A stretch of 61,029 nt of DNA, the filler included, from Dugesia japonica (Eukaryota), in the NCBI GenBank assembly GCA_001938525.1. It is 6 parts of 6 records of this genome, joined end to end, with 100 filler letters (N's around TTAATTAATTAA, not from the genome) between each part and the next. Parts side by side here need not be neighbours in the genome. Positions count along the whole stretch, not along the records: positions 8,771 to 17,485 come from MQRL01301225.1; positions 17,586 to 27,945 come from MQRL01608613.1; positions 28,046 to 40,658 come from MQRL01592463.1; positions 40,759 to 52,455 come from MQRL01596362.1; 2 more parts are not named here. One strand, given 5' to 3'. The position numbers and the translations under genes are program-made. Below, piece after piece: positions 1,970 through 50,060 of the stretch; position 1 is the first letter of the stretch, and the number at the start of each line of letters is the position of its first letter. The notes beneath the pieces were generated by a model, which did no database searches, had not been told where the DNA came from, and was given only the letters and a program-made list of their open reading frames with translations.

Positions 1970-2048
1970 CTTTTAAACCGTCACTTATCGAAGGAAATGA
2001 GCACGGCCAAGACAAACACTTTAAAAATATGAACCAACACTAATATCA

Positions 2049-13743: not shown

Positions 13744-13768
13744 TTTATAAAGAATTATTATAACATTT

Positions 13769-14979: not shown

Positions 14980-15015
14980 TTTTCACTTATCAACATTCGT
15001 CATCATCAGAGAAAG
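14980..15015 (-). ncRNA. Degenerate hammerhead-like motif downstream of a Penelope ORF end
   Basis: Minus: CUGAUGA-U-GAC-GAAU-GUU-GAUA (GAAA mutated). Confidence 0.45.
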
Positions 15016-15039
15016 ATGAAACCAATTCGTTTATTCTAT

Positions 15040-15635
15040 TATTTAAACAAAGATTAATGTGATTATACTGAATAAAAGGCAACTATAATTCTTAATTTTT
15101 AAAAATTCTTAATTTTTAAAATAATATAAACAACTTTTCAATAAAAAAAATGAATTTCTAAAATAACATTTTATAAATGTGACTATTACCCAGAAAATCA
15201 AAGTTGATTTTTCAAAAATATTTAAAATTATTTTATTTTTTAAATTGAAAATAAATAGATTTCAAAAATTGAAAAATTATTTTATATCTAAAAATTTTTA
15301 AATGTTTTAATCAATTTAGTCGTGAGAGCTGCATGTACATTAATGCTTGGATTATGAAATCTAATAATTAACGCCTCATACAACACTCTCTCACAGTAAT
15401 TTTTAAATTCTTTGGACAAAATTTTAAAATTTGAAATTTCAACATTCGTATTTATTTTCATTTTTATGCTCAGCAATAATACTACCAATACCAAAACGAT
15501 TATGCTTTTTAACCCTAGTACAGAGATGACGGACTATCTCTCCAAATTATGTGGCATCACACCCATTATATTTATATTGATAAATTTATATTGATTGATT
15601 GGTGGATAAGATTTATTAACAAAGCTGTTAGGTAA
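15040..15635 (-). mobile_element. Penelope-like element 3' remnant (GIY-YIG endonuclease)
   Basis: FKILSKEFKNYCERVLYEALIIRFHNPSINV C-terminal motif; homologous to 17587-18220. Confidence 0.8.
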
Positions 15636-15689
15636 ACCTTCAATTATTAATTCATTTTGCAAATCAGAATTCATATTGTTAGACATTTT

Positions 15690-16345
15690 TATTTTACTAC
15701 TACAAACTATACTTAATAAAAGAAATGACTATTGAATAGTATTTTAAAAATCTTTATCCAGAATTATCTCAATTTCTATTGGCTCAAATTAATGAATAAT
15801 AATTATTTCCTCATATCCCCCTTTCTTAAGAAACTTTTTAAGTTTTCCACATTTCTTTGTAATTGCTGTTCATTTTCTCCTTGTACCACCTTTCGTGAAT
15901 TTTCTCAATTATTTGATAGGGTCCTTCAAATCTGTCTTGGATTTTATTTCTTGTTTTAACCTTGATGAGTACCATATCACCCACTTTGAATTCTTTTTTA
16001 GCAATCACGTCTGAAGTGTTTTCTTTAGCTCTTTCTGAACCATCTGACTCATACAAATTTTCTCTGCTAATTTACTTTCCAAATAAAATCTTGGCCGGGT
16101 TCTTTCCTGTTTCTTCTGTTTGGTCGCGTTCATTGTAAATTCTATTTCCGGTAAAAGATCTGCCCAATCTGTTGACTTTCTTTCGTGAAGTGTTGCAGTA
16201 ATCAAATCTCTAATTCTCTTGAACTGTCTTTCAATTTGTCCGTTTGCATTATGATGAAAGAGACTCGAAAAGCAAAATTTAATATCTAGCTTGTATGCAA
16301 ACTCTCTCATAACTCTGGATTCAAACTCTTTTCCACAATGTAATA
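15690..16345 (-). mobile_element. Gypsy integrase 3' end + polypurine tract + LTR start
   Basis: HCGKEFES..FHHNANGQIERQFKRIRD..FKVGDMVLIK..RFEGPYQI; minus-strand AAGAAAGGGGGATA followed by TG at 15813. Confidence 0.88.
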
Positions 16346-17586
16346 TTAACAATCTTCTGCGATTTAGAAGCAATTTTCAAAAAAGGAAGATCCTTAGCAG
16401 CTTTCAAAATCGAATTCTTAAATTTTCTTTAAACTTCAGATTAAGTAATCGATAAAACAAATGGCCCAATGCAATTTGATAAAATGTTATTCAATACAGG
16501 ATTTTTCAATACAGTTTTAGTCTTTTATGATGACGGTTGATCCATCGAAATATTTATCAATAAAGTTTTATTTTAAATGGCGTAATTTATTTTGTATTAA
16601 ACATTTTCATAGTTTTTTTATATTTAAATAAATATAAAATAATTAATAGAGATAAGTTATAAAATGATGATAATAATTATGTGTAATCATAATTGATAAA
16701 AAATCTAACTTGACATTTTATAGAAGAGAAAAAATTTGCAAAGCTAATTTGAAATTTAATCGATTATTGGAGCTAACGCTATAATTAGTATATTTAAAAT
16801 CAAATTAACAAAACTATACTTCAATTAACAAATAATTGTAAAGTATGATCATGAATCTACTCTGATTAATTTAAGTTTTACATAATGTTGTCAGTGACTT
16901 TTAATTAATAAATCCTTCTCTCTTGAATTTATGTTTTTCATTAAACACATGTTGGGTATTTAACTCAACAAAATATATTTATGGTTCGTTCGTTTGTATG
17001 TAACTGATTTTATATTCAATCGATATATGTGAATACTGTGCTATATATATAAGATATATTATCGAAATTATAAATAACTAATAGTATGTAATGACCTTAT
17101 TTAATAAAAATAAAATAACACCTTTTAAAATTATTTTATTAGTGGCACTATAGGCAATAAGTTATAGAAGCTAAGACAAGCCAATTACAAAAATAGGTTA
17201 TCTTAGTTCAAAGAATGTCTAAAAAATTTACAATTATCATCAGTATTTATACTGATATTTAGAACACACACCTATCAATCATTCATACATCCATTATTAA
17301 AATAAATTATCATTCATTATTAAAACCAATTATTATTCATAAAAATATTTATAGAATTATTCTATAACAAATTATTTATTTATAAAATATTAATAACAAA
17401 ATATTATTCAGAAAATATTTATAGAATATTAATAATAAAGTATTACCAATTTTACAATTGACCTATTTATAATACAAACATTTGANNNNNNNNNNNNNNN
17501 NNNNNNNNNNNNNNNNNNNNNNNNNNNNNTTAATTAATTAANNNNNNNNNNNNNNNNNNNNNNNNNNNNNNNNNNNNNNNNNNNNT

Positions 17587-18220
17587 TAATAGCTTTGTTA
17601 ATAAATCCCATACACCAATTGGTTTGTGTTCTAACCTTGTTTATAAATTTAAATGTAATTGATGTGATACCACATACATTGGAGAGACTGCGCATCATCT
17701 CTGTACAAGGGTTCAAGAGCATAATCGTTTTGGTGGTGGTAGTAATATTGCTGAGCATATATATAAAAATAAAAGTAATTGCAATGCGAATGTTGAATTT
17801 TTCAAATTTTAAAATTTTGTCTAAGCAATTTAAGAATTACTGGGAGAGTGTTGCATTAGGCGTTAATGATTAGATTTCACAATCCAAGCATTAATGTACA
17901 GGCAGCTCATTCTACTAAATTAATTAAAAAATTTTTAAAAATCTTTTGGATATAAAGTAATTATTCAATTTTTGTTGAAATCTTAATTTATTTTCAAAAA
18001 TTTTTTTTTTAGGTATTGTATTTTATTTTTAAAGTAACTTTTAATATAATCTAAAATTTAAAAACAATTATATATTTTGAAATATCTTTGATTTTATAGG
18101 TAAAAGTAATAAAATATTATTATAAAAATTAATTTTTTATTGGAAAGTTGCTAAAAAATTTAAAAAATTAAGAATTATAGCCGTCTCATATTCAGTATAA
18201 TCGCATTAATCTTTGTTTGA
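17587..18220 (+). mobile_element. Penelope-like element 3' remnant (GIY-YIG endonuclease)
   Basis: SNLVYKFKCN*CDTTYIGETAHHLCTRVQEH..SNIAEH is the Penelope GIY-YIG pattern. Confidence 0.88.
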
Positions 18221-18469
18221 NNNNNNNNNNNNNNNNNNNNNNNNNNNNNNNNNNNNNNNNNNNNNNNNNNNNNNNNNNNNNNNNNNNNNNNNNNNNNNNN
18301 NNNNNNNNNNNNNNNNNNNNNNNNNNNNNNNNNNNNNNNNNNNNNNNNNNNNNNNNNNNNNNNNNNNNNNNNNNNNNNNNNNNNNNNNNNNNNNNNNNNN
18401 NNNNNNNNNNNNNNNNNNNNNNNNNNNNNNTTATTATTATTATTATTATTATTGAAAGGAATCTGTGAT

Positions 18470-19800
18470 TTATGTAGAATTTTTAAGTTTGAATGTGCAT
18501 TTGTTTTTTAGATAGTTGAAATGATGCAATTAAATATTTCAAAAATCTGTGTTTTAAATTTGTTTGTGTTGTTTTAGTATCGTGGATTTATTAAGTGTAG
18601 CGTGAAAAATAAACTTTTGAAAAATAAATATTCATAGAAACAAATTCATTTTGAACGAATTGATTTTTCAATTTTATGAATAAATTTTGGAACAATGTTC
18701 TGCGTGGTAAATACTGAACATATAACAGATAGGCTACTTTTGAAGATCAAGAGAATTATTTTGAAGCTAAATGTTTTACGCAGAGAAAATAGCAAGAACG
18801 ATTAATTTCGTGTAGTATTGATGATTTTCGTAAAGAATACACAAAAACAGTAAATAAAAGCATTTGATATTGTGAGGAATATGATAACTGATATGCAGAA
18901 TGGGTTCGAATATAGACGAAAGAAAGAAGACGTAGACATATTTTGAATGTGGATAAATTGTTTAGGAATAAAGAGTTTACTAAAGAAAAGGTGACGGCAA
19001 AGATGTTAGATTTCTGCACAAAATGCAGAAGATCTTAAAAATAAATAATTTTAAGAAAAGAAAATTATTAGATCAAAAAGAAAATCGTACGGAATCTATT
19101 ATTACAGTTCGAAGTTATACAAATGACAGGTAAGAAGATACAAAAAATAAATGATTATGTGAGATACGAATCTCCAAGGTTAGGTAAGAGTGGAAGATGT
19201 TAGAAATATTGGTGGTACAATCAATCAGATTATTGGAAACAAGATTATTCAAAGAAAAAGATGGTTGAATGATAAACAAATCAATAAAAGGGACACATAA
19301 TGAGGCCAATATTGGAATGTTTTGAATGTGGGTAATGAAATCACATAAGGTTTAAATAAAATAAATAGAAGATATTTTGAAGTTATGTTTATAAATATTT
19401 GTGATTCGTTAAAAGAAACAATAGATAGAAAAAAATTATCGTGAATTATTAGATTTTAAAATTTGGTTGCCCTATTAAAATACATTCAGATTGTGGTGGA
19501 ACATTTAAATCCAAAGCGATGAAAACTTTCGCTCATGAGTTAAAAATTGAATTATGTACTTGGAGTCCGTGTCATCACAAGACGAACGGGTAAATTGAGA
19601 GACAATTTTGTAAGATGCGAAATTGAATGAATGAATGAACGTTGCACGATAGAGTTAGTACAAATTAAGAATACTTTGTCAGGTGCAAAATGAATTTGTG
19701 AAGTTTGAATGCGTATTTATTATTTAGAAATTAGTTGAAATAATATAATTAAATATTTTAAAACTTGTGTTGTTTTAATATGGCTGAATTTTGAAGTGTG
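18470..19800 (+). mobile_element. Internally deleted Gypsy relic: gag zinc knuckle and integrase piece between diverged direct repeats
   Basis: LECFECG**NHIR near 19315; ILKFGCPIKIHSDCGGTFKS..SPCHHKTNG*IERQF at 19455-19620; direct repeats about 18476-18600 and 19692-19800. Confidence 0.75.
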
Positions 19801-20103
19801 CTATGATTTGATTTAGCAGAAAACAAGTGAATATATTGGAAGAATAAATAAATTTTGTGTAATATTTATTTTAGTAGTATATGTCGTATAATAGTAAATT
19901 CAACTTTTAATTATTGTAATCACCTTGCTTATAATATAATACATTTATTATTGTATGATTTATTAATTATAAATTTATTGGAGTATATAACATTTGAAAT
20001 TTTCATATGTACTGGCAAATTTTATTAGTATGTTACCAGTGACCTAGCTAGCAAAACTAGAGCCCATCACATCCCGAAAAGCATATAGTATTATAATATA
20101 TAG

Positions 20104-20258
20104 TACTGGTTCCCAAATGTTATTGTTCGTTGACCCCTTACCAAAAAACTATTAAATTTTTTTGGACACAAAATTTTGTCTTGGTGACCATTCAGCGCCC
20201 CTCTGTGAGTGGTGCTATGGCATGATATACCCATTCCTCCCCTCTCGCTACGCCACTG
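20104..20258. mobile_element. hAT-type MITE fragments
   Basis: TACTGGTTCCCAAA..GACCCC and terminal CGCTACGCCACTG (reverse complement CAGTGGCGTAGCG); GC-rich island. Confidence 0.4.
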
Positions 20259-20501
20259 CCTGTTATCTCAGTTATATCCATTGTAAAACAATAATTTAGC
20301 CAATAAAGGTAGCAATTGTTTATTATAATAAAGCAACCTTAAAAATCAACTAATATAGTAAAAGGCATTGATTAAAATTTATTTTTCTTATTTCAAACAG
20401 CTAACTTGAGAGTGATTTGCTCAAAAATTTGTTAATATTTATAATTGTATGTTTTCATTTAATTATAAAAAATTCTAAATAAATAAAAAATTCTAAATAA
20501 C

Positions 20502-20812
20502 CTGTCCACGAACTAAATGATTCAGCATAGGATTAGGGCGTGATGAGCCAATACCAAGCTGTGCTAGATTCACTAAATCGCAATGAGCATCAGGAAGCGA
20601 ACTTGTATCAGATCCTTCAATAGTACCATCATTACTGGCTCCATCGAAGCATGTATTACTAAAGCGATCTGAACCTAATCCAGAAGTAGGAACATTTAAT
20701 CGAGAAACTTGGTCATTTAACAATTTAGCATTAGAAGTTTGGGGAACTCTACAATATGCTGATATACTAACTTCTGACGCTAAATCATCATTCTCTAAAG
20801 ACTCTAGATTTT
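20502..20812 (-). CDS. Host gene exon (unknown low-complexity protein)
   Basis: TTTCAG acceptor at 20814-20813; open frame ENLESLENDDLASEVSISAYCRVP..; CAG|GTTATT donor or terminal stop at 20493. Confidence 0.65.
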
Positions 20813-20858
20813 CTGAAATTAACAACTGACTTTAATTACAAAAATAATTGCAAAATAC

Positions 20859-20990
20859 CATGGAGAATATTTGAAGACGTCATGGGAGGAGGAGTATAAT
20901 AATAAGTTTGGTTGCCAATATTGTTGTACTGCTGATACTGATTTGATGGCATAACAGGTATAAGAGTCTTACCATTATTAGGATCTGTTT
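20859..20990 (-). CDS. Host gene exon(s) YQQYNNIGNQTYYYTPPPMTSSNILH; 5' boundary unresolved
   Basis: A 46-nt GT-AG intron at 20813-20858 keeps frame with the next exon. Confidence 0.5.
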
Positions 20991-21229
20991 CTATATTAAA
21001 ATAATTATTACTAAATTATTCTTTAAAACAAATATACAAAGTTTAATCATTTGTCTCTAATGTGTTATTTTGTATTTCAGAAAATTCTAAGTATGTTGAG
21101 TATTGGCATTCAAAATGTATAAGAATGATTAAAGTGTTAAAAAAAAATAATGAATTCCACTTCCTATTTATGAAGTATTTTAAAAAACTGTAAATTTCTT
21201 AATGTTTTTCTTTTAAAATATTTCCAAAT

Positions 21230-21480
21230 TTAACAATTACAATTATTGCGAGAATAATTGTTGAACTTAACCATTGATCGTATTTGAGATTTCAATAAAT
21301 TAAAAGCTTCAATCAAAATGTTGGTTCGGATTGTTATTAATAATTTTTAATTTGTGACAATTGTCTTCTTTAGGCATTTAAATTCTTTAAAACAATTGTC
21401 GAAAATTCGCATTACTAATAACAAAACAAAAAAAACAAAAAACATTTTGATTGAAGCTTTTAATTTATTAAAATTTCAAA
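21230..21480. repeat. Penelope-type terminal repeat with fold-back and split hammerhead motif
   Basis: Family block ACAATTATTGCGAGAATAATTGTTG..TAACCATTGATCG..AGCTTC shared with 29310, 49980-50060 and 52995-53045; inverted arms around 21350-21413. Confidence 0.7.
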
Positions 21481-21509
21481 GTTTTTATACAAATTTTTGT
21501 TATAAGAAA

Positions 21510-22230
21510 TTAATTCGTTTTTAACAACAAAATAATTTTATTTAAAAATTTTTTAACAAGCAAAGATAAAGTTGCTTTTATTTTATTTTCAATATTTCGG
21601 CAGGAACTATTGTTCAGTAAATTCTTATTACAAATTTTGACATAAAGACGGATTTTAAATAAATCTGAGTAGACTGAATTTTCATTGGTTTTTAATTATA
21701 ATATAAAATTAAATAAACATTTTCCCGGTTAATTGTTGCAAATCAATATGATAAATCTTTTATAAAAAAAATTTTTAAAACTTAAATAAATTCGTTTTTA
21801 ACAATAAATTTTTTTAAATAAAAATTTTTTGTTAAAAATGAATTTGTTTATTGTCAAAACAATAATTTTTAAGGTTTAAAATATTTTAAAAATAAATTTA
21901 TCATATTGCTTTGCAGCAATTAACCAAGAAAATGTTCATTGAATTTTAAATTATAATTAAAAAAACAATGAAAATTGATTTTACTCAGATTTAACAAATA
22001 TTTTGAAAAACAAATTTAAATAAAATTTATTTTCAATGGCAAAGATCAAAACGATGAAACTCAGATTTATTTAAAATCCTTCTTTATGTCAAAATTTTTA
22101 TTAATAATTTACTGAACAATAGTTCCTGAAGAAGGCTATGTCGAAATATTGAAAATAAAAGAACAGCAACTTTGATCTTTGCTTGTTAAAAAATTTTTAA
22201 ATAAAAATTCTTTGTTAAAAACGAATTTAT
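21510..22230. repeat. ~720-bp imperfect fold-back (inverted repeat centred near 21810)
   Basis: e.g. AACAAGCAAAGAT/ATCTTTGCTTGTT, CAGGAACTATTGTTCAGTAAATT/AATTTACTGAACAATAGTTCCTG, TTTTGACATAAAGA/TCTTTATGTCAAAA. Confidence 0.9.
22122..22154 (+). ncRNA. Minimal type-I hammerhead ribozyme motif
   Basis: GUUC-CUGAAGA-A-GGC UAU GUC-GAAA-UAU-U-GAAA. Confidence 0.6.
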
Positions 22231-22751
22231 TTATTGAAAGATCAGTGGTTAAAAAATTAATTTTTAAGTTAAAAAAATTTTTAAAAATAGATTTATTATA
22301 AGAAATTAATTATATTTGTTAAAAAAAATCCAAGCTTTTAAATGTTTTTAATAATAGTTTTAAAATATACTTTTTTAAAATAAATATAATAACTTGTTTA
22401 AATTAATTATTAAAAGGAGAAAAATTGTAAAAAGCAATTTTGAATGTTAAAGTACAGATAAAGTCAGGAGAAATTGAAAGAAGAATTTTTTTTTGTATTT
22501 AATAAAGTTTTGATTTGAAACGTGTGAAATTATTGAAATGAAGAAAACTGCAATAAGACTATTAAAATTTCAATAATTCACGACAAAAGATAAATAACAA
22601 TGTTATTAAGTCATTTCATATTAAAATTCAATAATGCAATAAGTAATATATTACAATAATTTCTACAAAAACTATCTGGATAAACATTTCTATTAAGTTA
22701 AACAATAAAACATTTACATATACATAAACTTTAAATATTGATCAAATGTAC

Positions 22752-22952
22752 CTTTATATATTCCATTTTCCGGAAATGGCAATGAACTCATGAAGTTATT
22801 GATTCCTCCAGGAACGAAATAATTCGATTGAGGATTCATTAACATTTGTAAATGAGAATCTACTTCAGTCTCGCTATTTTGTTCGCTATGTTCTTCATTA
22901 GAAGGCAATCGACTAGTTGGCATTAAGTGGCAATCGTAGTGAACTGATAAAT
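22752..22952 (-). CDS. Host gene exon
   Basis: TATAG acceptor, AAAG|GTACAT donor; 201 nt, phase 1-1, in frame with the upstream exon. Confidence 0.7.
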
Positions 22953-27280: not shown

Positions 27281-28044
27281 TTGATAAAACACTTTCATAA
27301 ATTTTAACAAATAATAATAATTAGAATATTTTTTGTTTAAATGTAATATTAATTATTATAATAAATGAGAATACGTTGTAACAAATTTTGGAACACTTTT
27401 CATATAATTTTTAATACTATTAAATCTTCAGGTTTTAATTTTTTCTGATAAAATGTTGCATTATTTTGTAAAGGAATCTAGTGAAGAATATCTAATATAT
27501 ATTCTTAAATTTTTATCATGCTTATTTTAAAACTTCACATTTGTTATTTTTATAATTAGTTATTATATTATGCAGATTTATAATAATTATAATTAATTAA
27601 AGTATTACTGTTATGAATTCTTATTATGATGTAATAGTTAGATTGTTCACATGTCAGAGTAAATCGATGTTTATATAAATATTCCGATTAATCGAACAAA
27701 TTTATAAAAACCCGATTAATCGTTTTATATTTATTAACAAAACAACAATTTTTAAAGTGTCTTTAATTGCTCAAAATTATTTAACAAACTACGATATTTT
27801 CAAAATGTTGTTTAAATATTCAATTTAAAATTAAAATTTAGAAAAACTGATTATTTTTAACTTTTGCAAAAGTAAGTTCTAATTATAAAAATTAAACAAA
27901 TAATAATTGATTAATTATTTTTAAATTTATCCATGTCAGATAGAGNNNNNNNNNNNNNNNNNNNNNNNNNNNNNNNNNNNNNNNNNNNNTTAATTAATTA
28001 ANNNNNNNNNNNNNNNNNNNNNNNNNNNNNNNNNNNNNNNNNNN

Positions 28045-29050
28045 NTATGTATTCCAAATTGTATTTTTACACTCTTTATTTCTTCGATTATCTTCAATAA
28101 TTTATCTATTAAACTATCCTGTAAAATTATTAGTTTAATATTTAATTTGGACACGTCAAGTTTCAATATTTGATAACACTTATATAGGTCACTTTCTATA
28201 GTAGGTTCATTAAGAGAACCGCCAACTTGCGTATCTTCTTCATCTAAAAACTTTTGTAAAACTATATCTTCATTTCTTTCTTCCAAATCTATTTCATTTA
28301 TTTCTTCTATCATTTCAACATTACTCCAATCTGGTTTATCAATGACTTCTGGTTCCTTGATAACAATTACTTCTGGATCTAATTTTAATTTTTACATGGA
28401 ATTTCTTATAATATTTCCAATAGCAATTGTTTNNNNNNNNNNNNNNNNNNNNNNNNNNNNNNNNNNNNNNNNNNNNNNNNNNACATGTTTTTATTTCTTC
28501 ATCCTTGAAAAATTCCGTATGTATTCCAAATTGTATTTTTACACTCTTTATTTCTTCGATTATCTTCAATAATTTATCTGTTAAACTATCCGGTATAATT
28601 ATTTGTTTCATATTTAATTTGGATACGTCAAGTTTCAATATTTGATAACACTTATATAGGTCACTTACTATAGTAGGTTCATTAAGAGAACCGCCAACTT
28701 GTGTATCTTCTTCATCTAAAAGCTTTTGTAAAAGTAAATCTTTATCTCCTTCTTCTTCATTCATTTCTTATATCATTTCAACATTACTCCAATCTGGTTC
28801 ATCAATGACTTCTGGTTCCTCGATAACAATTACTTCTGGATCTAATTTTAATTTTTACATGGAATTTCTTATAATATTTCCAATAGCAATTGTTTTTTAT
28901 CAACGATAAAACATGTCAAATGATGTACATGCAACCTATAAAATGGATCATATGTACTTAAACCTAGTGTTGTGCATTCTTGGCATATAAAATATTTTCT
29001 ACCGTAATAAACCAGACTTTAGTATTTCTGCATCACTTTATAGCATTTAG
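28045..29050 (-). pseudogene. Polinton pPolB N-terminal region fragments (duplicated across a gap)
   Basis: QVGGS..SDLYKCYQILKLDVS..IIEEIKSVKIQFG is homologous to the segment upstream of pPolB motifs at 57500-57920. Confidence 0.7.
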
Positions 29051-29309
29051 CATTATGTATTGTATTAGTACAGTAGTTTTTTTGCAGTAAACGTTTATCT
29101 AAAGAAANNNNNNNNNNNNNNNNNNNNNNNNNNNNNNNNNNNNNNNNNNNNNNNNNNNNNNNNNNNNNNNNNNNNNNNNNNNNNNNNNTAAAATCATACT
29201 AAAAAGTAATGAAAACTTAAAAATATATATTTATCATTCATTAATATCAGTAAGTTAAATCATTGTGTTCAATTAAAATCATGAAATTAAGTAAAAATTA
29301 TTAATTTTA

Positions 29310-29530
29310 TAATTACAATTATTGTGAGATTAATTGTTGGACTTAACCATTGATCGGATTTGAGATTTCATTAAAATAAGATAAGGCTTCGATCAAAACA
29401 AAACAAAATTTATTTCTAAAAAAAGTTCAAATTTTCGACAATAGTCTTCTTCAGGAACATTGTCGAAAAAACTTTTTTTAGAAATAAATTTTGTTTTGTT
29501 TTGATCGAAGCCTTATCTTATTTTAATGAA
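29310..29530. repeat. Penelope-type terminal repeat with a near-perfect ~61-bp inverted repeat flanking a hammerhead
   Basis: Arms at 29367-29427 and 29470-29530. Confidence 0.85.
29425..29458 (-). ncRNA. Minimal type-I hammerhead ribozyme motif (best copy)
   Basis: GUUC-CUGAAGA-A-GAC UAUU GUC-GAAA-AUU-U-GAAC; stems I and II pair perfectly. Confidence 0.72.
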
Positions 29531-29774
29531 AAAATTATTAAGTTAAAATTTGATAAAATTATTTAAAGTTTAAATCATTACAATAAAAATTGTAATGGAA
29601 TTAATTTAATAATACACTACATATTTGATAATTTTATGTTTAATTTTAATCATTAAAATAAAAATTTATAATGATTATTAACTTAACAAGATAAATAAAA
29701 TCATTAAAATAAAAATTGTAATGAAATTATTGTCATGAAATCACACATCAATAACATAAAATCTAATTATTAAA

Positions 29775-30565
29775 TTAAAATGGAATAGTAACTGGAGACA
29801 CTAACAGTTTTTTCTTAGACGTTAGGAACATTAGACTGGAAAATTTATTGTCACTGATGGTAAAAGATCAACTATCAGATACTTCAAATTACTCGCAAGA
29901 TCACACTCTTTACAACTTAAAAACTCAATTCAGTAGTTGGAAAGTTTACTGCAAATGTACTTGCAATTAGGTGTGCAAGTTACAAATGTTCACAGGGCAG
30001 TTAGATTTTCACAAAATCATATTTTCAAGCAATATATCGATGAAAACACTAAATTATGGGCTGAAAGTGTGAAAGAATTGGATAAAATTTACTAAAGGCT
30101 CATGAACAACAGCTTGTATAGCAAATCAGTTGAAAATCTGAAGGAACGAATAAACCTGAGAATATATGTAATTCAGCAAAGATGTTAATGTTCTATACCT
30201 CAAAACCAGGGTTAAGGAGAACCATTAAGATCGATAAAGATTAAATAGAGGTACAACTAAATAAATACATTGCGCGTCCCAATAGACCTAGCTACATAAG
30301 AGAGACATTTCTTGATTTAAGCAAATTAAGAATGTACCAGCTTCAATAAATTGTGAGATAGGTACGGACATTAATCATCAGTCGTACATTGATTGTTACA
30401 ATAACAATCAATTGGTCTCAGTAAAACAATTTAGAAAAGGAACGAAAAACCACCAGTTGTACAGTTTCTTAGAACCAAAAGTTGCATTAACAAATAATGA
30501 TGACAAAAGAGTGTGGACTGATAAAAAGATAAGCATATCATACGACCATTATTCTATCTTGTAAT
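29775..30565 (+). pseudogene. Polinton protein-primed DNA polymerase B C-terminal relic
   Basis: GDTNSFF..DTSNYSQDHTLY; LGVQVTNVHRAVRFSQ..YIDENT..RLMNNSLYSKSVEN; LDLSKLRMY; KVALTNNDDKR..YDHY. Confidence 0.88.
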
Positions 30566-31429
30566 AAATAAGACTTGGATGAAAAGAAGCGCATGTACAG
30601 GTAAATTATTTTGTTATCTGGAATTATTAATTTTTACCATTAAGATCAAATTCGCAATAAAGATCCATATATTGAAATGATTATAAATAATGTAATGCCT
30701 GTGAGTATCTGTGTGTTATAGACAATAAATNNNNNNNNNNNNNNNNNNNNNNNNNNNNNNNNNNNNNNNNNNNNNNNNNNAACCACCAGTTGTACAGTTT
30801 CTTAGAACCAAAAGTTGCATTAACAAATAATGATGACAAAAGAGTGTGGACTGATAAAAAGATAAGCATATCATACGACCATTATTCTATCTTGTAATAA
30901 ATAAGACTTGGATGAAAAGAAGCGCATGTACAGGTAAATTATTTTGTTATCTGGAATTATTAATTTTTACCATTAAGATCAAATTCGCAATAAAGATCCA
31001 TATATTGAAATGATTATAAATAATGTAATGCCTGTGAGTATCTGTGTGTTATAGACAATAAATTTTATGTTTTGACGTGTTTTGATTTTTTTATTATTAT
31101 TATTGTTAGTAATATTGCTTTAGACTCACTTATGTTAAACAAAAAGGTTAACCGCCCAGGCACAATATTAAAAACTGCAAAAATAATATTGAGGGAAAAA
31201 ACCGGCCGAAAAAAACTTTACCTTAATGGGGATGGGTGTTCTAGGGCACCACTATCTACCTAATGACATAATTGAACACCGCTACAATTGTTTAAAAAAC
31301 AATCATCGTCAATAATTGACTAGACTCAGATCATCGAAATGGTCAGGAATTCCAAGGCAACTGTTTATTATTCAATACATGAAAATTTTAAAATATTATT
31401 TATCACATTTTTGTTTCCTTTTTTTGACC

Positions 31430-31610
31430 ATAATAATGGAAACTTTAAATAACTTTGACCATATAATTATGGAACCTGTAATCATCATAGATCATATAAT
31501 TATGGAATCTTTAATAATCATAGATCATATAATTATGGAATCTGTAATAATCATAGATCATATAACTATGGAACCATTTAATAATATTGACCATATATTA
31601 ATGAAACCTT
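31430..31610. repeat. 30-bp tandem array (GATCATATAATTATGGAA...), about 6 units
   Basis: Direct inspection; produces the repetitive ORF 31316-31633. Confidence 0.85.
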
Positions 31611-32939
31611 TTATTTACATAAATTTAAATTAGTATTTAAAAATATAATTAAAATTTCATTTAAATTAACATATAAAGAAAATAATAATTAAATTCTTCA
31701 TTTTTTAATTTCAAATACAATTTGGTAAATATAAAATTAAACAATCGATAAATATATTGATTGTTTAATTTTTATTACTTAAGGAATTTGAAATTAAAAA
31801 ATGAAAATTTTAATTTCATATTACTATAAATTCTATAATAAAAATTATGGTTACATGAAATTAAGCGAGCAATATATTTATTGATTGTTTAATTTCATAT
31901 TATCATAATTCTAATTATTATAATTATGGTAATATAAATATAAATATTTAAAAGTTAATTTATTATTAGTTACGATGTATTAATTTACATAGTTACCATG
32001 GGTTATTGTTATATTTTAGTGGTTTGAGTTGTTTTAAAAATTCCCAGGCACGTGAAATTTTGTATGTTGCAACTGTGTTTCATTCCTATTAAAATATTCA
32101 TAATTTTAGAAGTTAAAAAAAAATTTCTGAGCAAATTATTTTGTATGTTGCATGCAAAAATGACTTTCAAGTATATTTTTAATGGTTTTTTATGAGATTA
32201 AAAATTATTAGACATGTGATTAAAAATTATTTTATATGTGATTTTGTTGCTCATGTGTTGCATCCGAGTTGCATTAATATGTTTAGTATATATTAGTGGT
32301 TTGAATAGTTTAAAAAATTCAAAGGGTCAAATTTTGTGTTACAATTATGATGCAACCCTATTGTAAGTATATATATTTATTACTTATAAAAAAATAACTA
32401 AAGGGGGGGAGTCTTTGTGTATTTTTATTATAAATTATGAAAAGAGCTGAGTTCATGTATATTATGATAAAGTAATCAAAAAGGAAATTCTTTGTTTTTT
32501 TAAAAAACAAATTCAAAAAGTGTAAAACTTTTATAAAAAGAAATCATTCGCGTAGAACTTTAATATAATAATTTATTACCGTGCAACTTTTATTAAAAAA
32601 ATTCAAAGAGTGGAATCTTTGTGATATTTTCATCTTCAATAGTTTTTTCTTCATTTATTTCTTCATTAATATTGAATTTTCCGTTATCATTGGCTTCCAT
32701 TATATTTTCTATTCCTTCATGGTTATTGTCATTTTCAAGTCCTTCCTCACCTTGGACAGTATTTTCAAAATATATTTCATAAGTATTCATTTTGTAAAAA
32801 GTGAATTTATTTTAAAAAAACAAATTTTGTTTTATATAAACACGGTAACCAATCATATCAATTATAGTAAATATTAACCAATAGGAACTCACAAATAACG
32901 AGTATGTGTGTATCGCAACTAGACGAAAAAACTTAGTTA

Positions 32940-33950
32940 TCATGTTTTATTTACATAGCAACCGTGCATTATAAGGACCATGAGTGTATTATGACATAGT
33001 AACCCTGTATCATAGGGTTTATTAGTATAATATTTGCATAGTTACCTTGTATTATTTACAAAGCAATGTATTATAAAGATTATGAGTGTATTAATACAAA
33101 GTAACCCTGTATTATAGGGTTTATGAGTATATTATTTGTATTATTTACATGCAACAATGTATTATCAGGATCATGAGTTTATTATTTACATAGTTACCTT
33201 GTATTATCTACATAGCAACCATGCAATATAAGGATTATGAATGTATTTATACAAAATAACCCTGTATTAAAGGGTCTATGAGTAGTTTATGGGTTGTTAA
33301 GTATATTATAGAGTTTATGAGTATAATATTTACATATTTACTATGTAATATAATGTTTACGAGTATACTATTTGCTTAGGTACTATGTAATATTTACATA
33401 ACAACAGTTTAATATATGGTTTTTGTGTCTATTCTTTGCATAGTTAACTTGTATTATTTACATAGCAACCACGTAAAATAAGGTTTATAAGTGTATAGGG
33501 TTTATGAGTGTGAAAAATTTCATATATATCCTAAAATTATTATAGAAATACCTTCAATGTCTATATAAAAATTACATGTTTGTATGAATATAAGGTTTAT
33601 GACTGTATTATTTATATATTTACTTATATTATTTACAAAACAAAGGAGTAATATATAAATTATGAGTGTATAAGATTATGAGATTAACAATTTTCCATTT
33701 ATATATAACTAAAGATTACTGTAAAAATACCTTAAAAGCCTATAAAAACTTATAAGTAAATGCTTTATGAAAGTGTAAGGTTATGATTGTATATGGTTTA
33801 TGAGTGTGGGACATTTTCTTATAAATAACTTAAAATAACTGTATAAATGCCTTATAAGTAAATATGTTTAGGAATTTATAAGAGTTTTGTGTGTATAGGG
33901 CTTATGAGTGAGAAACATTTGCATATATATGTATATATATGTAACTCAAA
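32940..33950 (-). repeat. Complex tandem array, reverse complement of 8040-8670
   Basis: TTACATAGCAACC / GGTTTATGAGT subunits. Confidence 0.88.
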
Positions 33951-38605: not shown

Positions 38606-38634
38606 AAACCTGAATTTTGCCTCAAATTGTTATA

Positions 38635-39020: not shown

Positions 39021-39051
39021 TCACAAATAGTCAATCAAGACGAAAATTCCG

Positions 39052-42146: not shown

Positions 42147-42445
42147 TCATGTTATATCATTATGTGTTACTTGTGGCTCAACAGCATTTTTAAAATTTCT
42201 AAAATGGCTCCCTATACATAAACTTCTGATCAATCCTACTACTACTAAAAGATTTATTTCATGACATAAAGCTTGTTTTTTATTCTTCGGGAGCTCAATT
42301 CTGCTTGGAATTGTCGATTTTTCTGATTTGATTTGCTTCAAAATATCGTCAATATTGGACTGAATTTCTTTGAAGACTTCAATAACTTGTTCATCAGAAT
42401 TAGCAGGCATGGAAACAGCTACTTCGAAAACGTCATTCAAAATCT
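42147..42445 (-). CDS. Possible exon of an unidentified gene
   Basis: TTTCAG acceptor near 42447 and a 97-codon open frame; no recognisable motif. Confidence 0.35.
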
Positions 42446-42789
42446 CTGAAAATTATTAAAATCCAGATTTTATCATATCTGGGATGATTTTCTTCATTAG
42501 ATTCTCAATCCGATTGATCAAATTTGTATAATGTACATCATTATAATAAATCAGACGAGAATCAATATTATTTTTTCGCACATTGTATGTATTTGAATTA
42601 AGATAATAATTTAAACAAATTAAATCCTTTATTTCTTTTTTCTTGAAATAAAAGAATACTTTTTATTTTCTATTCTAATTTTCAATGTGAGACTTTGAAA
42701 ATAAGAAAAAATTGAAATTATGTATAAACAAATGTACGATAGTATTTTTAAAATTCGGGTATGTTCCTGATATATGAAATTCCCAAATA

Positions 42790-43990
42790 CATGCAGAATT
42801 CTGTATATTTGAGATTGCACATTTTGCGAAACATTTATCTATTAAACTCTTTGGTACAACAATTTTTTGAATGACTTAGTAAGTCTCAGGTGGGATGGTT
42901 CTTAAAGATCCTATAACACAGGTGTACAATTCTTTATAGTAACCAGGCTTTGCTAGTTTTATCTTGTTTTTTAAATTATTATATTTTACTTTAATCTCTT
43001 GATCTATTTTTAAGAAGCCCTCAATTGAGTCATTTTAAAAAGGTCATGTAAAAAAGGACATTTTACATCAACTAGAAATATTCTTTTCCTTTCAGTAATC
43101 ATAATATCAACGCGTTCTAATGAGTCTGGAACCAAAGAACAAGTACGATCAATTACGATTATTAANNNNNNNNNNNNNNNNNNNNNNNNNNNNNNNNNNN
43201 NNNNNNNNNNNNNNNNNNNNNNNNNNNNNNNNNNNNNNNNNNNNNNNNNNNNNNCATTGTGAGAATGACATCGTTGACATAGTCTTTCATCAAAAGTAAT
43301 GATATGTGGTCGAGCATTTATTGAAAGTTTATTTGTGCGTGCTTTGTATATGAAATTCCATTCAAATTTGTCTAGAACACTGCAAAAGATTAGTTTGTTG
43401 ACAACTGGACTAAGACGCACCGCATCAGCTAAAATGTTACTATTATTACTTTTATGCGATATTATTGATTAAGAGTCAGATATGATTTTATGAAGTAAAA
43501 GGCAACTTGTTTTCTGCAGTCACTGTTTACAGTAACCGTCCCATTGGGCATATTAATACGCAATAGTGCACCTTTCATGTCAATTGTAAATGTAATGGTT
43601 ATGTCATGAACTCTTTTAAAGTATTCAATTGCCGTTCTCAGACGCATAAACCGTGTTTTGTCCCTTTGCAATTTTTGATACTAACTTTACCATTAATCTA
43701 GTCAAAACCGTGAAATAAAATCGGTACCTTTATCCCTAATCTTGATGAAGCAGCAATTATAAGAGACTCGTGATTAATTGTTTTGGTATAGTCACAATCA
43801 GTAGTAAATAATCTAAAGAATTGTACAATACTTTGACAATGGTAATCATNNNNNNNNNNNNNNNNNNNNNNNNNNNNNNNNNTTTCTGTTGCTGTGTAAA
43901 AATAAGCAATTTCAGAATGATCAGGTAGATTCATCATTTTTCGAAGTTGTATTCGAAGCTTACTAGTAGAATTATAATAATAATTGCTTG
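42790..43990 (-). mobile_element. RLE-type (R2-group) non-LTR retrotransposon 3' remnant
   Basis: KARTNKL..LCQRCH (CCHC start), RVDIMITERKRIFLVDVKCPF (PD..D nuclease), KIKYNNL, VIGSL. Confidence 0.82.
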
Positions 43991-44664
43991 TTCAAAACCA
44001 TCACACTTAAGTCTCATTCCATTTTAAATTTCATCATACCAAATTAATTATAATCATCATACGCCAGTCATGAAATCACGCTTAGTGCATTTCTCATCTT
44101 TCTTTTTGATACTGCTTTATGCTCCACAAACATATCTTTAATTAAGCATAGCTTGCTCTTCAACTCTTTCTCTTGCGTTGTAGCCCAACCACCGTATAAA
44201 GCAAAAAATACATTGAGAATAAATCAGGAATTAGACATTTGATAATAATCTAAATGAAATATTGCACTTTATTTCACTTCTTTATTTTGCTGTTATGAAA
44301 TTTATTTTAAATATTCGTTTTAGACACATAATTTATTTAAATAAAACTACTAGGGATTTACTTTGTGGGTAATAATACCAAATTTGAACAAGAAAACAAT
44401 GATAATGTGAAAAGACTTTGTATAAATTTTATCATTTTCTAAAATATGAATTAACTAAATTAATTAATAGTCTAACAATTGCTTTAAAATCTTAAAATAA
44501 TATTTAAATAATAATATTAAAATAATATAGAAATAAAGAATAACCAATTTATCTTTGTTTTCATACAGAAAATTATATGAATACTTAAATTTAAATAAAA
44601 CAATGGACAAATCTACTGAAATTAGTGTTACCATATATTAATATTTTTAATTTAATTAATTTTT

Positions 44665-45240
44665 AAGGAAATAAATAATAATTAGAAAATTTCAACCAAA
44701 AGAAATTGTTGAAATTATGTTAAATAATTTTTAAATTTTCATTTGAAAAAAAATGTATGAATTAATTTACAGATTGGGCAGACATTTTTCCGGAAATCGA
44801 ATTTACATTGAACGCAGTAAATCAGAATACGGCTAGAAAGAGTTCAGTTGAGATCGTATTTGGAAAGAAAATTAGCAGAGAAAAGTAGTACGAGTCAAAA
44901 GTTTCAGAGGGAACTAAAGAAAACATTTCAGAAGTGACTAAGAATAGAGAATTCAAAGTAGGAGATTATGCCATCGTCCAGGTAGAAACAAGAAATAAAA
45001 GCCAANNNNNNNNNNNNNNNNNNNNNNNNNNNNNNNNNNNNNNNNNNNNNNNNNNNNNNNNNNNNNNNNNNNNNNNNNNNNNNNNNNNNNNNNNNNNNNN
45101 NNNNNNNNNNNNNNNNNNNNNNATAAGAGGGATATAAGGAAATAAATAATAATAAAAAAATTTCAACCAATAGAAATTGTTGAAATTATGTTAAATAATT
45201 TTTTAGTTTTAATTTGAAATAAAATTATGTGAAATTAATT
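44665..45240 (+). mobile_element. Gypsy relic: LTR 5' piece - integrase tail - PPT - LTR 5' piece
   Basis: Direct repeats TAAGGAAATAAATAATAAT..TTCAACCAA.AGAAATTGTTGAAATTATG at 44665 and 45135; between them TDWADIFPEIEFTLNA..EFKVGD, and AAGAGGGATA before the second repeat. Confidence 0.8.
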
Positions 45241-45350
45241 GTTCTGATTTCGAAATTAAATTATCATTTGAAGAATTATAAAAAAAAAAGTTCTTGAATT
45301 AAAATATTGATCAAAATATTGATTTTCTTTTCTTGAGTTCTTGATAATTT

Positions 45351-45385
45351 TATCAAATTTTCGACTTTGTCTTCATCAGGAATTT
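45351..45385 (-). ncRNA. Minimal type-I hammerhead ribozyme motif with canonical core
   Basis: AAUUC-CUGAUGA-A-GAC AAA GUC-GAAA-AUU-U-GAUA; stem I partly decayed. Confidence 0.62.
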
Positions 45386-46619
45386 ACTTTTAATTTATAA
45401 TTATAATTTAAATAGTATAACAAAAAAGAAAGCATTATTTCTTTTAAAACAACAATTGTTTAAAACAATGTATTTATTAATTGAATAAATAAAAATAAAA
45501 TCACTTGTTTAAATCACCTCTAAATTAATTTACATCTAAAACTATTACATAAATTCTAGCGATAAATTATTCAGCAAAAAAATTACCTATTAACAAAATG
45601 AGAAAACTGTAAGCAGGTAATTAATAAATAATTGCGTTAAAAGCATTNNNNNNNNNNNNNNNNNNNNNNNNNNNNNNNNNNNNNNNNNNNNNNNNNNNNN
45701 NNNNNNNNNNNNNNNNNNNNNNNNNNNNNNNNNNNNNNNNNNNNNNNNNNNNNNNNNNNNNNNNNNNNNNNNNNNNNNNNNNNNNNNNNNNNNNATCCTC
45801 ATCAATAAATCTCTAGTCGATCTGACAAAGTTTGACTACTTATATTATCATGGTGTCCATTTGATTAACTGCACCCACTTAATCTATTAATTATACTTAA
45901 CTTTTCATTTATTAAATGGATTACAATGCGATAAAAGTAATTGTTGTTGATAGCTATTGAGGAAGCAGTTATTGAAGAATATTAATTATAAATTTGTCAA
46001 TATTATAATTATAATTCTTGGTTTGAATTTCAACAGAAGAATTAAGTATCATCATCGAACTAGCTAAATTTTTTTCCATCAAGATATTAATAAAAATTAT
46101 TTATTATATATTAATTAATATTTAATTTCGATTAAAACTTTTGCAATTTTAATTAATCGAAGAAGTTCTAAATAAATCATCATAGGGTATATTTATTTCC
46201 TCACACGTTTTGTCATTATTAGATGTGCTTTAGCTGGTGATTTTCCTGGAGACTTATCTGGAAATTTTCATTTAATTTAACTTTATGAATAAATATTTAA
46301 TTGTTACTTTAATTAACCCCNGATGTATGTATGAATAGATCCAGTAAATAAACTGATCTGTTTTAGTTGTTTAGCAAACACAAATTTTCATTGAGACTCT
46401 GACCTCTCAGGGGTGCAGCTCTTGTTTGAATTAATTTACAGTTTATAGTAACTTTAAATTAATATATTGTTATATACGAAAAATATGGATTTCTTTAAAG
46501 ATGTATTATTTCTTTATTTATATAAGAAATCTTACACATATTACCCAATCTATAGTAAAATATCTACATAAGAACAGAACATCAACAGAATAATATCAAA
46601 CACCTATATAAAACAGTTA

Positions 46620-47570
46620 TAACATAATTCCAAGAATCTAATTAATTAGATACAATTTTTAACCGGTATTTCATAGTTTTAAAATACGATCCATAACATC
46701 GATTTGATTGTTTTTTAATTCTCTTTCAAATCATTGTCAATCTCTTTTGATTTCCGGAAAATCTTCTTATTGTGTTTAGTCTTTAATTTTTATATATTAC
46801 CTTCTATAATTCGTTTGGTAGGAAAACAGCTTTTTATTTAATTCTGCTATTTAATTGCTACTTNTCCGTTAAGCTACTAATATTTACTGAGACTTAAGAA
46901 ACATGAAAATACCACAAAATAAAATCATTTTAATATACTAAAAATTTACAAATATTTTTATCTGTTTCTTCAGATAGTTTTCAATTTCATGACTTTTAAT
47001 ACGAATACATTCTGATTTGTATATGTATATTAAGTTGAATTGGTTGCTCATCTGTTTCTCTACGTATGATGCAGAAACCATTGTTTTTATTTCGAAAAAA
47101 ATGGATAGTTTATATTTTAACTCCGAGTTGAATGGCTGGTTAATTTATGTTTCGATCTAGTTCTGAATTAAATTGACTGCATTGATTCTGCTATATATTC
47201 CTAGATTAATATACTCCTGGAATTTTTCCTGAAAAGATTTGGCGAAAAATAAGTGTAATTTTTAGTATTAATTAAGAGACAAAAGCTTTAATAGAATTTT
47301 CAAAAATTTTAAAAATACTTTCTATCTTGATTCTTGTATTTGTAAAATCCAGGAAATCTACTGCATGTACGTTTATTTGAAGGTTAAGGTATGTCTGATC
47401 TATATGATCTTTTAATTTAATAAATTTTATTGATACTTTTGACTTGAATATTATTGACAAGGAAATTATTATACATCTTTGGAATTTGAGAAAAATTCTG
47501 ATTATTAAACTAGCCTCTTTTTCAGAAAATAAGACTTTGTCTTATCGCCGGTGGGCCATTTCATTTAAAA
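46620..47570 (-). pseudogene. Possible cadherin-repeat-like pseudogene
   Basis: LQINVHAVD, RINAVNL..PFNSELKYKL resemble cadherin VxAxD..NxxxxY spacing; many stops. Confidence 0.25.
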
Positions 47571-48674
47571 TACCTAAAATATGCAATAATTTAAACAATT
47601 TTTAAATGATATGATTTTTTAATTAATTTAAATTACCGTAANTACAAAAAAGCCTTAAAACATCATTATCTCAATGACCAGACATGATGGACTATTAAAA
47701 GTATACATTTTAATGATCAGTATGTCAGGATGCATAAGAAAATGTTTATGTGAACTAAGAAAAAATTTGGACTCCAGTGTTATTTAATCAATAAAGATTT
47801 ATACCGTAAATACGTAAACAAATGTCACGTGTTAGTATTTATTACATGATGTTCAATTTTAAAAATACTTATAATATACAAGCACAATTTTTAACTAGTC
47901 ATTTTGTCAGTATAGGACACAAACATTTCGATAAACTATCATCCAGCTTTTTTAATTGCATGAAATTCAATACATGTATTTTATTTCAAACCTATAAAAT
48001 AATGAAAACTTTCGAGAAGATAATTAATAAATAATATTTTAATATTTCATAATTATATAATATAATATATTTCTTTATATATTTCCATAAAAGATTTCTT
48101 AACAGAGATTATTGTGTGTTTTTAGTAAATTAACAATTCCCTAAATTGTAAGCCCTAGTGAATATTTCTCTTGTAAAAAGAAAACAAAACAATTTTTTAA
48201 TATCGGAAAACACGATAAATTATAAAATTAAAAAAATTTTAAAAAAATCAAAAAAATAATTAATAAATCAAAGCTTTCTGTAATCATGATCATTTCTAAA
48301 AAAATAAGAATTAAAACTAATAAATTTAATTTAAAACCATGAAAAAATTATCAATTTTTTGCTTTTTTTAATTAATAAAACTTAACTTTTTAAAATACAA
48401 ATCTAATTATAAATATTGCTGAATTTCATTTATTAAATAAAAATGAATTTAATAAATTTGTTCATTTACAAAAATTAATTTATTTATTAATTAAAATTTA
48501 ATTTTAATTTTACATTTAAATATTCAAATTTATTTATTGATTTCAATGCCAAATTTTAAGCCGCATGAAATTGAAATTTAATCAAATTCGATTTTTAGTG
48601 GAATATTGTTAATATATTCACAGTTTCACGATTTTGATTTATTAATCAAAGCTTCTAATTAATTCTAATTAATG

Positions 48675-48676
<2 letters not shown>

Positions 48677-48724
<48 letters not shown>
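48677..48724. repeat. (AGT)n microsatellite
   Basis: Perfect trinucleotide run. Confidence 0.95.
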
Positions 48725-49915
48725 TGGGAAGTAAAGTAAACATGGAAAATTTGATGATAATCAATTTACGTCATGGATTAGAGATCTGTTTTTTTTNNNN
48801 NNNNNNNNNNNNNNNNNNNNNNNNNNNNNNNNNNNNNNNNNNNNNNCAATAAAACCGATGAATTTTAATGATATTCATTATTTATGAAAATCGATAAAGA
48901 AATTAGTAAAAAAACAAATTATTTTCTAATATTTATCAAGAAATTAAATTAATTTAAAAACTCTGTTTATTTTATCTAGAACATTATAATTGTTATGTAT
49001 GCAAGAACGGCATCTGTGCTTGTTTGTGTTTGTGTGTTAATCTGTATTCTAAAAATTAACATGATAACTATTTTGTTAAAAAATATGGAGAAACTCTTAA
49101 TTTTCTGTTTTACAGTTTCTTATTATCGAAAAGCATTTCAATTTGATTTAAATTGATGAAACATCGAACTTAGAGTTTTGTTTAAATTTAACTGGCAAGT
49201 AGTAATTTGTTTAAGATTTATATTTGAACGAAAATGATAAATGTTATTTTTCATTTCATTTTGTTATTTAAATTCGAAATCTGAATGTTTATTTACTCAA
49301 TGTATTTACTCATGCTAAAATCAACTTATTATTTTGTAATTGATGAATTAATATCACAGTAATTATAATTTTAATAAAGAGAAGCATATTTCTCAAGAAT
49401 TCTTAACTGCTGCACGAAACAGCTGAGTTTGAAAATTATGAGATTTATGATAATTATTAACCACAGATTTGTCTCGATATAAAATTTCGATGAAATTTTT
49501 ACACCGTGAATGAAATGTGAGAATCTGTGAATTTAAATTGTAATGATAATAAAGAAAATAATAATCATAATAATAATAATAATAATATTAAAAATAAGTA
49601 AATTAATAATAATAATAATATTAAAAATAAGTAATTAAATAATAATAATAACACATTCAACACAAACCTAAAATTTCACCAGAACAACATCACATTACAT
49701 GGATGACACTAGGAACAGGCTACATTTCCACACTTGATAGCAAAAAACATGAAGAATTACTAATTAAAGAAGATAATTTTAAAATGAATGTCATTTATAA
49801 TAAAAAAATAATTAAAATTAAAAAAATAAAATTAACCAATAAAAATTCAGTAAAATAAATTAATTCAAATAAAATTACTATTACTAAATAAATATTGGAT
49901 AAATCTATGAAAGTC

Positions 49916-50060
49916 AATTTCTGGCGAAGACAAAATCGAAAATTAAGATTATTATCATAAATAACAAAATAAATTTAGATCGAAGCTTTAATTTTAATGA
50001 ATTCTGAAAAACTATCAATGGTTACATCCAACAATTATTCTCGCAATAATTGGAATTGTT
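49916..50060 (+). ncRNA. Degenerate hammerhead motif plus Penelope-type terminal repeat
   Basis: AAUUU-CUGGCGA-A-GAC AAA AUC-GAAA-AUU-A-AGAUU, followed by the GATCGAAGC..ATCAATGGTTA..AACAATTATTCTCGCAATAATTG block. Confidence 0.58.

Follow-up and report, generated by a model that had tools for sequence, protein, structure and literature searches.

A stretch of 61,029 nucleotides (nt) of Dugesia japonica DNA (assembly GCA_001938525.1; six parts of six records joined by filler, hereafter the window) contains copies of a very small hammerhead ribozyme that are pieces of Penelope-like elements (PLEs). An initial annotation had named six such copies and described them as an unusual, obligately dimeric variant carried by a mostly gene-less, possibly retrozyme-like repeat. 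The window is AT-rich (24-30% G+C) and not depleted in CpG. As set out below, the motif and its carrier are of a known kind; what our analysis adds is a likely footprint of the ribozyme cut site among the starts of genomic copies, comprising about one in ten copies in the tested subfamily.

Two of the six named copies are intact and satisfy the published descriptor of the class (Table 1). The copy at 29425-29458 on the minus strand pairs GUUC with GAAC in stem I, has the palindrome AAUU and a U at position H17, and would be cut between 29429 and 29428. Its minimum-free-energy fold is an open hammerhead (-4.6 kcal/mol); if transcribed together with its inverted arm, the ribozyme is predicted to be buried in a -47 kcal/mol hairpin. 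The copy at 22122-22154 on the plus strand has UUC/GAA in stem I, the palindrome AUAU and a downstream spacer that differs from that of the main family, family A. The remaining four turned out to be damaged or misread. At 45351-45385 (minus strand) the core is whole, with only two contiguous pairs in stem I. At 49916-49950 (plus strand) stem II contains a C.A mismatch, and AAUUU/AGAUU in stem I is a decayed form of AAUUC/GAAUU. The split copy at 21350-21413 has AAUGC and a mutated core, CUAAAGA, on the minus strand and GAAAAUUC-GCAUU on the plus strand; its halves lie on opposite strands, so that no single RNA carries both. Alignment of 14980-15015 (minus strand) to a second family, family B, gives a 6-nt palindrome, AUAUAU, and UUGU/ACAA in stem I; the 'GAA' previously parsed as stem I is the mutated GAAA core of a family B copy.

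Table 1. Hammerhead copies and associated PLE remnants in the window.
Feature	Position	Strand	Basis and remarks
Intact minimal hammerhead, family A	29425..29458	-	C3 at 29454, H17 at 29429; passes descriptor, 4-bp stem I
Short PLE copy (ribozyme, spacer, tail)	29303..29460	-	Tail translates like the N-terminus of P0001, ~20 first ORF codons
Inverted, tail-less second arm of the same insertion as 29303..29460	29460..29531	+	Repeat comparison
Intact minimal hammerhead, 22122 subfamily	22122..22154	+	C3 at 22126; passes descriptor, 3-bp stem I
Decayed short family A copy	45290..45391	-	Core intact, C3 at 45379; starts ~14 nt upstream of C3
PLE GIY-YIG endonuclease, C-terminal part, 5'-truncated	49650..49803	+	tblastn to P0001 residues 793-842, 66%, E 1e-13
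Mutated hammerhead in the 3' pseudo-LTR of the 49650 endonuclease copy	49916..49950	+	C3 at 49921; A6 changed to G
Tail, equal to PLE ORF start	49997..50062	+	Translation; same sequence enters the ORF in L077 and L424-L453
Head-to-head arm 1: decayed hammerhead and tail	21227..21389	-	C3 at 21373; core CUAAAGA, GAAA lost
Head-to-head arm 2: 3' half of ribozyme only	21392..21480	+	Begins inside stem II
Decayed family B hammerhead	14980..15015	-	C3 at 15009; 3' strand of stem II and G12 mutated
Family B GIY-YIG endonuclease remnants	15300..15585	-	tblastn E 1e-13; upstream of the 14980 copy, same strand
Second decayed family B copy, absent from the initial annotation	16515..16628	+	85-88% to family B loci
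Tail-only stub of family A, lacking a ribozyme	52978..53071	+	Tail translation

The motif is real and recurs far beyond chance. A stringent core-plus-stem-II pattern gave 11,001 exact matches across the genome (854 Mb in 648,594 contigs), against none for the reversed pattern, and a family B pattern gave 589 against none for its control. We also coded as a script the minimal-hammerhead (min-HHR) descriptor of supplement Fig. S7 of PMC4209133, which allows 3-7 base pairs (bp) in stem I, cuganga with an optional extra base, 3-7 bp in stem II, a loop of 3-10 nt and gaaannuh. The window matches it twice, compared with 0.01 matches per window under an order-3 Markov null (three in 300 simulated windows). 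Among 70 sampled genomic copies, found with a pattern that fixed stem II and the core, 55 have a stem I of at least 3 bp and an H17 other than G. The first 69 listed loci hold 72 motifs, 69 of which have an H17 other than G; positions 15.2-16.2 read UA in 40 and AU in 28, where chance would give 50% palindromes because the pattern forced A or T at both positions. The extra base between positions 9 and 10.1 and the G10.1-C11.1 pair, both features of the class, are present. An Rfam scan of the window found no hammerhead family at E<=5, a null that is uninformative because such motifs fall below the Rfam models.

The motif is not new, and together with its carrier it belongs to a kind already described. 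PMC4209133 defines the min-HHR as cuganga[N]...gaaannuh; since GAAA-NN-UH is part of that definition, the 2-nt spacing that had been taken for an unusual variant is the norm for the class, and the alignment in that paper includes one AAUU example, from oyster, and several AUAU examples. The available part of the same paper notes the extra base, the palindromic positions 15.2-16.2, single truncated copies and opposite-strand pairs. The D. japonica copies are alike in CUGANGA followed by one extra base, in G10.1-C11.1, in GAAA-NN-UH with a palindromic NN and in a short stem I, and also in occurring as thousands of mostly single copies, with opposite-strand pairs, in the pseudo-long terminal repeats (pLTRs) of PLEs. 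Family A stands at the small end of the descriptor, with a 3-bp stem II, a loop of 3-4 nt and 25-26 nt from C3 to H17; the Caenorhabditis briggsae motif of PMC4209133 likewise has a 3-bp stem II, and the 6-nt AUAUAU palindrome of family B resembles its drawing for Drosophila virilis. The present sequences are not among its listed examples and, in contrast to the present analysis, the available part gives no map of copy 5' ends. It does report no cleavage of monomers, low cleavage of dimers and low activity in vitro.

Stem I covaries between subfamilies, by exchange of A-U with G-C and of U-A with C-G, in few independent events. Of the 70 motifs with both flanks in the first 69 listed loci, 48 carry A-U and 11 carry G-C at pair 4. 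A base other than U at stem I position 2 gave 132 matches; by hand count among the 100 listed, ten are compensated as UCC/GGA, while compensation is absent from all 22 UGC and all 29 UAC copies, GCA accompanying UGC in 0 of 22. UUGU/ACAA in family B is a further compensatory difference between families. The claim that stem I differs between copies yet stays paired consequently survives for subfamilies across the genome, although the examples first offered for it mix covariation with decay: AAUUU/AGAUU is a decayed stem, and AAUGC/GCAUU is rejected as a covarying subfamily, its two sides never being found together (none of 30 GCAUU copies carries UGC, and the doubly changed AUGC/GCAU motif has no match genome-wide).

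To place these motifs in an element, the genome was searched for the GIY-YIG family and for reverse transcriptase (RT), the latter giving 6,899 first-look candidates. RT, endonuclease and hammerhead occur in this order on one strand at 3 of 30 and 5 of 20 loci, amounting to seven distinct contigs, as L060 and L079 among these 50 RT loci are one contig. The family A layout runs from RT through GIY-YIG endonuclease, 3' untranslated region (UTR), hammerhead and a spacer of about 60 nt to the start of the open reading frame (ORF) again, forming a partial tandem. The hammerhead lies just upstream of the ORF start at 5 of 30 ORF-start loci by exact motif and at 8 of 30 by eye, and at four of these eight the 3' UTR precedes it. 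The tail that follows the ribozyme translates as the first ~20 residues of a protein like P0001, an intact relative of 843 amino acids (76% identical; RT, GIY-YIG, CCHH), and continues into the ORF in L077 and at the ORF-start loci; the copies stop either where the ORF begins or about 20 codons inside it. The family A protein is encoded by one ORF, with RT followed by a C-terminal GIY-YIG domain, and has both CxxC and HxxxH (CCHH). Families A and B both lie in PLE pLTRs, and two of the named copies (49916 and 14980) have endonuclease remnants just upstream, the former piece adjoining an (AAT)n tract. Further family B GIY-YIG remnants lie at 17618-17934 (plus strand), where the 3' UTR reaches an assembly gap at 18221 before the position of the ribozyme.

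Proteins of the P0001, L074, L077 and L081 type carry the DKT motif and the CxCx5C linker, which PMC8557442 describes for the Hydra clade; that clade lacks CCHH, which is kept here. By the marks given in the available part of PMC8557442, P0001 mixes Hydra-like with Neptune/Nematis-like features, and the family A protein possibly represents an intermediate lineage. Three close relatives of P0001 (P0004, P0006 and P0007) have a Neptune-type CxxC linker.

The layout agrees with endonuclease-bearing PLEs as described in the accessible text of PMC3846280 and PMC8557442: RT followed by GIY-YIG, partial tandems, a tail of the first ORF codons, an inverted 5' copy with head-to-head arms of which one bears the tail, and insertion near AT-rich microsatellites. 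Two pairs in the window (29303-29531 and 21227-21480) have this inverted-arm arrangement. The ribozyme here is wholly upstream of the ORF start, whereas the ORF of the anole Poseidon element starts in stem II (PMC11167929, in part). Five of the six copies, whose carrier had been called mostly ORF-less and possibly retrozyme-like, belong to pLTRs of RT and GIY-YIG PLEs and lie singly or head-to-head. With non-LTR retrozymes (bioRxiv 10.64898/2026.07.22.740005), known from animals (PMC7229834, in part), they share the type I hammerhead, the absence of an ORF from most copies and a likely dependence on PLE proteins; yet retrozymes are head-to-tail arrays with a ribozyme per unit, and the present copies are single or head-to-head pieces of a coding element. 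No head-to-tail array with a hammerhead per unit was found in the window, for which a tandem retrozyme is rejected. Among 69 sampled loci, three hold two motifs, in each case as an inverted pair; the matches listed in the stem I survey include two pairs on the same strand, separated by 373 and 943 nt. The sixth copy represents the 22122 subfamily, for which no ORF link was found at any of six related loci (L019, L021, L149, L157, L167 and L178), making it a candidate non-autonomous element or an as yet unfound PLE family. It has its own spacer and no recognisable ORF-start tail, and sits in a nest of inverted duplications at 21500-22300.

We then determined where family A copies begin. A sample anchored at the 3' end drew on 2,844 matches, from which 72 arms were examined and 55 had enough flank. 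Thirty of these stop downstream of C3 or in the core, some by internal deletion; 6 stop 0-9 nt upstream of C3, 18 at 10-25 nt and only 1 beyond 25 nt. A second anchor gave 1,854 matches, from which 100 arms were taken, 84 being uncensored. Of these 84, 46 have their edge 3-18 nt upstream of C3, with 20 falling at 11-13 nt; five more arms extend weakly, and five censored arms clearly enter the 3' UTR. This edge does not reflect loss of sensitivity, because by a similar method all 14 endonuclease-bearing copies extend 151-200 nt. The edge 11-13 nt upstream of C3 likely marks the element RNA's 5' end, that is, its transcription start. In Drosophila Penelope, transcription likewise starts inside the pLTR (start at 371, with a 75-bp intron; PMC2377424, in part). 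Short head-to-head copies (L228-L285) frequently carry a spacer variant that eight endonuclease-bearing references lack.

A second group of copies begins at the predicted cut site. Eight of the 84 arms start exactly at the first base after H17, compared with 0.875 per position over the next 24 nt, an approximately nine-fold excess (Poisson p 4e-6, the arms not all being independent). The edge is one base wide, with eight arms at the cut, two one base downstream and two one base upstream. Two patterns that exclude the core (no GAAA) gave 162 and 120 matches. In the subfamily with C at H17, 20 of 27 copies lacking the core match no base upstream of the cut (three core remnants having been dropped from 30); in the subfamily with A at H17 the figure is 12 of 25 (five dropped from 30). 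On removal of an internal deletion, a duplicate and a second arm, 17 events remain, against seven over the next seven positions (p 6e-11, uniform model). By hand count, 64 of 100 listed core-excluding matches have no C before the cut. Decay of H17 within a CpG is ruled out as a cause of the peak, as full copies keep C in 47 of 48 cases and have T in one. Later insertion into old copies at the cut site is likewise discounted, since a displaced core is found upstream in none of 21 C-subfamily arms (113-1511 nt of flank); it is found in 2 of 13 A-subfamily arms. About eight of the 20 cut-site C-subfamily copies are solo rather than fold-backs, and in several head-to-head pairs both arms begin at the cut-site base, separated by a few additional T or A. 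Cut-site junctions often hold short repeated restarts or perfect palindromes (L368, L370 and L390), as if RT had folded back or re-primed at the end of its template.

From the genomic positions of these starts, the cut-site group likely records ribozyme cleavage in vivo. A comparable coincidence is known for R2, where the ribozyme cut site coincides with the 5' junction of genomic copies (PMC3774820, in part); in R2 an HDV-like ribozyme defines the 5' end of full elements, whereas here a hammerhead defines that of a minority of short copies. A literature search, with subscription papers outside its scope, found no published cut-site or start-site footprint in PLE copies.

We consider it highly probable that the motifs are minimal type I hammerheads of PLE pLTRs and that the gene-less copies are short reverse transcripts covering the element RNA's front end. 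The element protein would prime reverse transcription inside the ORF start, copy to the RNA 5' end and run off; the anole PLE protein primes inside the ORF start in vitro and extends both nicked strands (PMC11167929, in part). Uncut RNA would yield copies with a whole ribozyme, their 5' edge marking the transcription start, and ribozyme-cut RNA would yield those beginning at the cut site (~10%). The head-to-head pairs would result from fold-back or from priming on both nicked strands. With less assurance, we favour on balance the fuller reading, in which the main edge is the transcription start and the second edge reflects cleavage in germ-line or stem cells; in that case an all-A/U stem III of 4 bp would cut in vivo and the cut 3' product would be retrotransposed in about one of ten events.

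For such cleavage, two ribozymes would have to pair through stem III (AAUU or AUAU), or a protein would have to help. By hairpin geometry, stem III cannot close over 2 nt within one molecule and would therefore form between two ribozymes, and a dimer requirement is what this geometry suggests. Lunse et al. (cited in PMC6765202) reportedly also observed cleavage of minimal hammerheads as dimers. The initial annotation was right to regard these as type I minimal hammerheads needing a dimer, or help, to close stem III. Possible partners are the 5' and 3' pLTR ribozymes of a partial tandem, which are separated by about 2.6 kb; a head-to-head pair offers no such partner in cis. The predicted stem III duplexes are weak (AAUU +2.2 and AUAU +1.6, compared with -1.7 kcal/mol for ACGU), for which reason protein help or a second ribozyme would be needed. 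The weak predicted dimer agrees with the available part of PMC11167929, in which a protein is reported to assist the anole ribozyme.

Several observations weigh against cleavage and the inferred start. In RNA reads aligned to two loci, neither starts nor ends accumulate at the cut site or at the inferred start; the reads came from four plus four raw-read or contig sets of fragmented oligo-dT or cDNA libraries, and 79-100% of them continue into unrelated sequence. No back-joints indicative of circular RNA occur among the joints listed in the RNA reads, from libraries ill-suited to reveal them. The anole study, as far as its available text goes, likewise saw no ends of RNA-seq reads at the cut site of its element, where a group of copy starts is seen here, and reports that cleavage is not needed in vitro. 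The predicted active dimer (-3.6 kcal/mol) is less stable than two open monomers (-9.2 kcal/mol). An AT-rich flank and complementary stem I arms would let microhomology shift junctions, and a smaller pile-up 5 nt upstream (~12 of 100 by hand count) arises in this way. The samples are first-listed, mostly short contigs found with exact-match anchors, which represents young copies of two subfamilies, and paired arms and duplicate contigs are not independent. The transcription start, moreover, is inferred from DNA alone.

The same PLE origin might hold with the cut-site peak caused by pausing or template switching of RT at the junction of stem I and stem III, or by microhomology, an alternative that we regard as possible though less probable than cleavage. 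Many junctions are indeed fold-backs carrying short AT-rich repeats, microhomology produces other local peaks as well as internal deletions at GAA, and the reads at the two loci lack ends at the cut site. Against this stand the single-base sharpness of the edge relative to its flanking positions, the recurrence of the peak in two subfamilies with different H17 and the solo copies, about eight of 20. Stops of RT at a structure are expected on the 3' side of a stem; pausing would accordingly be expected 3' of stem I and not past it. The main edge could similarly be a truncation hot spot rather than a transcription start, lying as it does in an A-run, smeared over ~10 nt, at AT-rich target sites. 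We find this unlikely, as other A-runs in the spacer raise no such wall (25 of 55 arms pass C3, after which only one passes 25 nt upstream) and as the Drosophila Penelope start, with the intron taken out, also lies a short distance upstream of the ribozyme (PMC2377424, in part; C3 at 496, PMC4209133 table S1).

More improbable still is that the short copies are a separate SINE-like (short interspersed element) or retrozyme-like non-autonomous element, itself transcribed and copied by the PLE protein. Such an element would suit the fixed 5' and 3' ends, the mere 5 of 100 arms that clearly enter the 3' UTR, the spacer variant missing from endonuclease-bearing references, the 22122 subfamily with its six unlinked loci and the abundance of short copies in RNA reads. 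However, run-off alone accounts for the fixed ends, short copies share their main spacer variants with ORF-bearing ones, two ORF-bearing copies (L425 and L438) start at the same edge, the copies end in the first ORF codons and the window is devoid of head-to-tail arrays.

The role of PLE hammerheads has been called unclear (PMC8557442, in part). On the cleavage reading, the excess of copies that start, to the base, at the predicted cut site would be an indirect sign that these ribozymes cut in cells, and in-cell cutting would become testable family by family from genomes alone. If true, the hammerhead activity of any PLE family could be assayed from sequence alone, and thousands of gene-less copies would be explained without invoking a separate retrozyme.

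The window also contains other elements. Broken LTR-retrotransposon pieces, which we take to be Gypsy-like, lie at 1157-3310, 10390-11075, 16005-16376, 51282-52335 and 59966-60911; they give Pfam matches to aspartyl protease (weak) and RT RNase H, and a repeat search identified three related copies. A hAT dimerisation domain (55118-55672, minus strand; Pfam E 1e-9) is situated between 284-nt inverted repeats at 53984-56676. Short frames at 12112-14272, 27990-28895 and 57484-58976, as well as in L076, resemble Polinton/Maverick-type genes; a Pfam scan of the window returned no match for those within it. The segment 28046-28895 has a duplicate at 472 nt on the other side of a gap and is related to 57577-57723. 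Minisatellites of 14, 15 and 33 nt occupy 14424-14737, 9945-10132 and 31430-31627, and a repeat with a 64-nt period is present as two stretches of opposite orientation, at 8020-8645 and 32931-33677. At 30448-31063, an exact 283-nt duplication spans a 50-N gap and is probably an assembly artefact.

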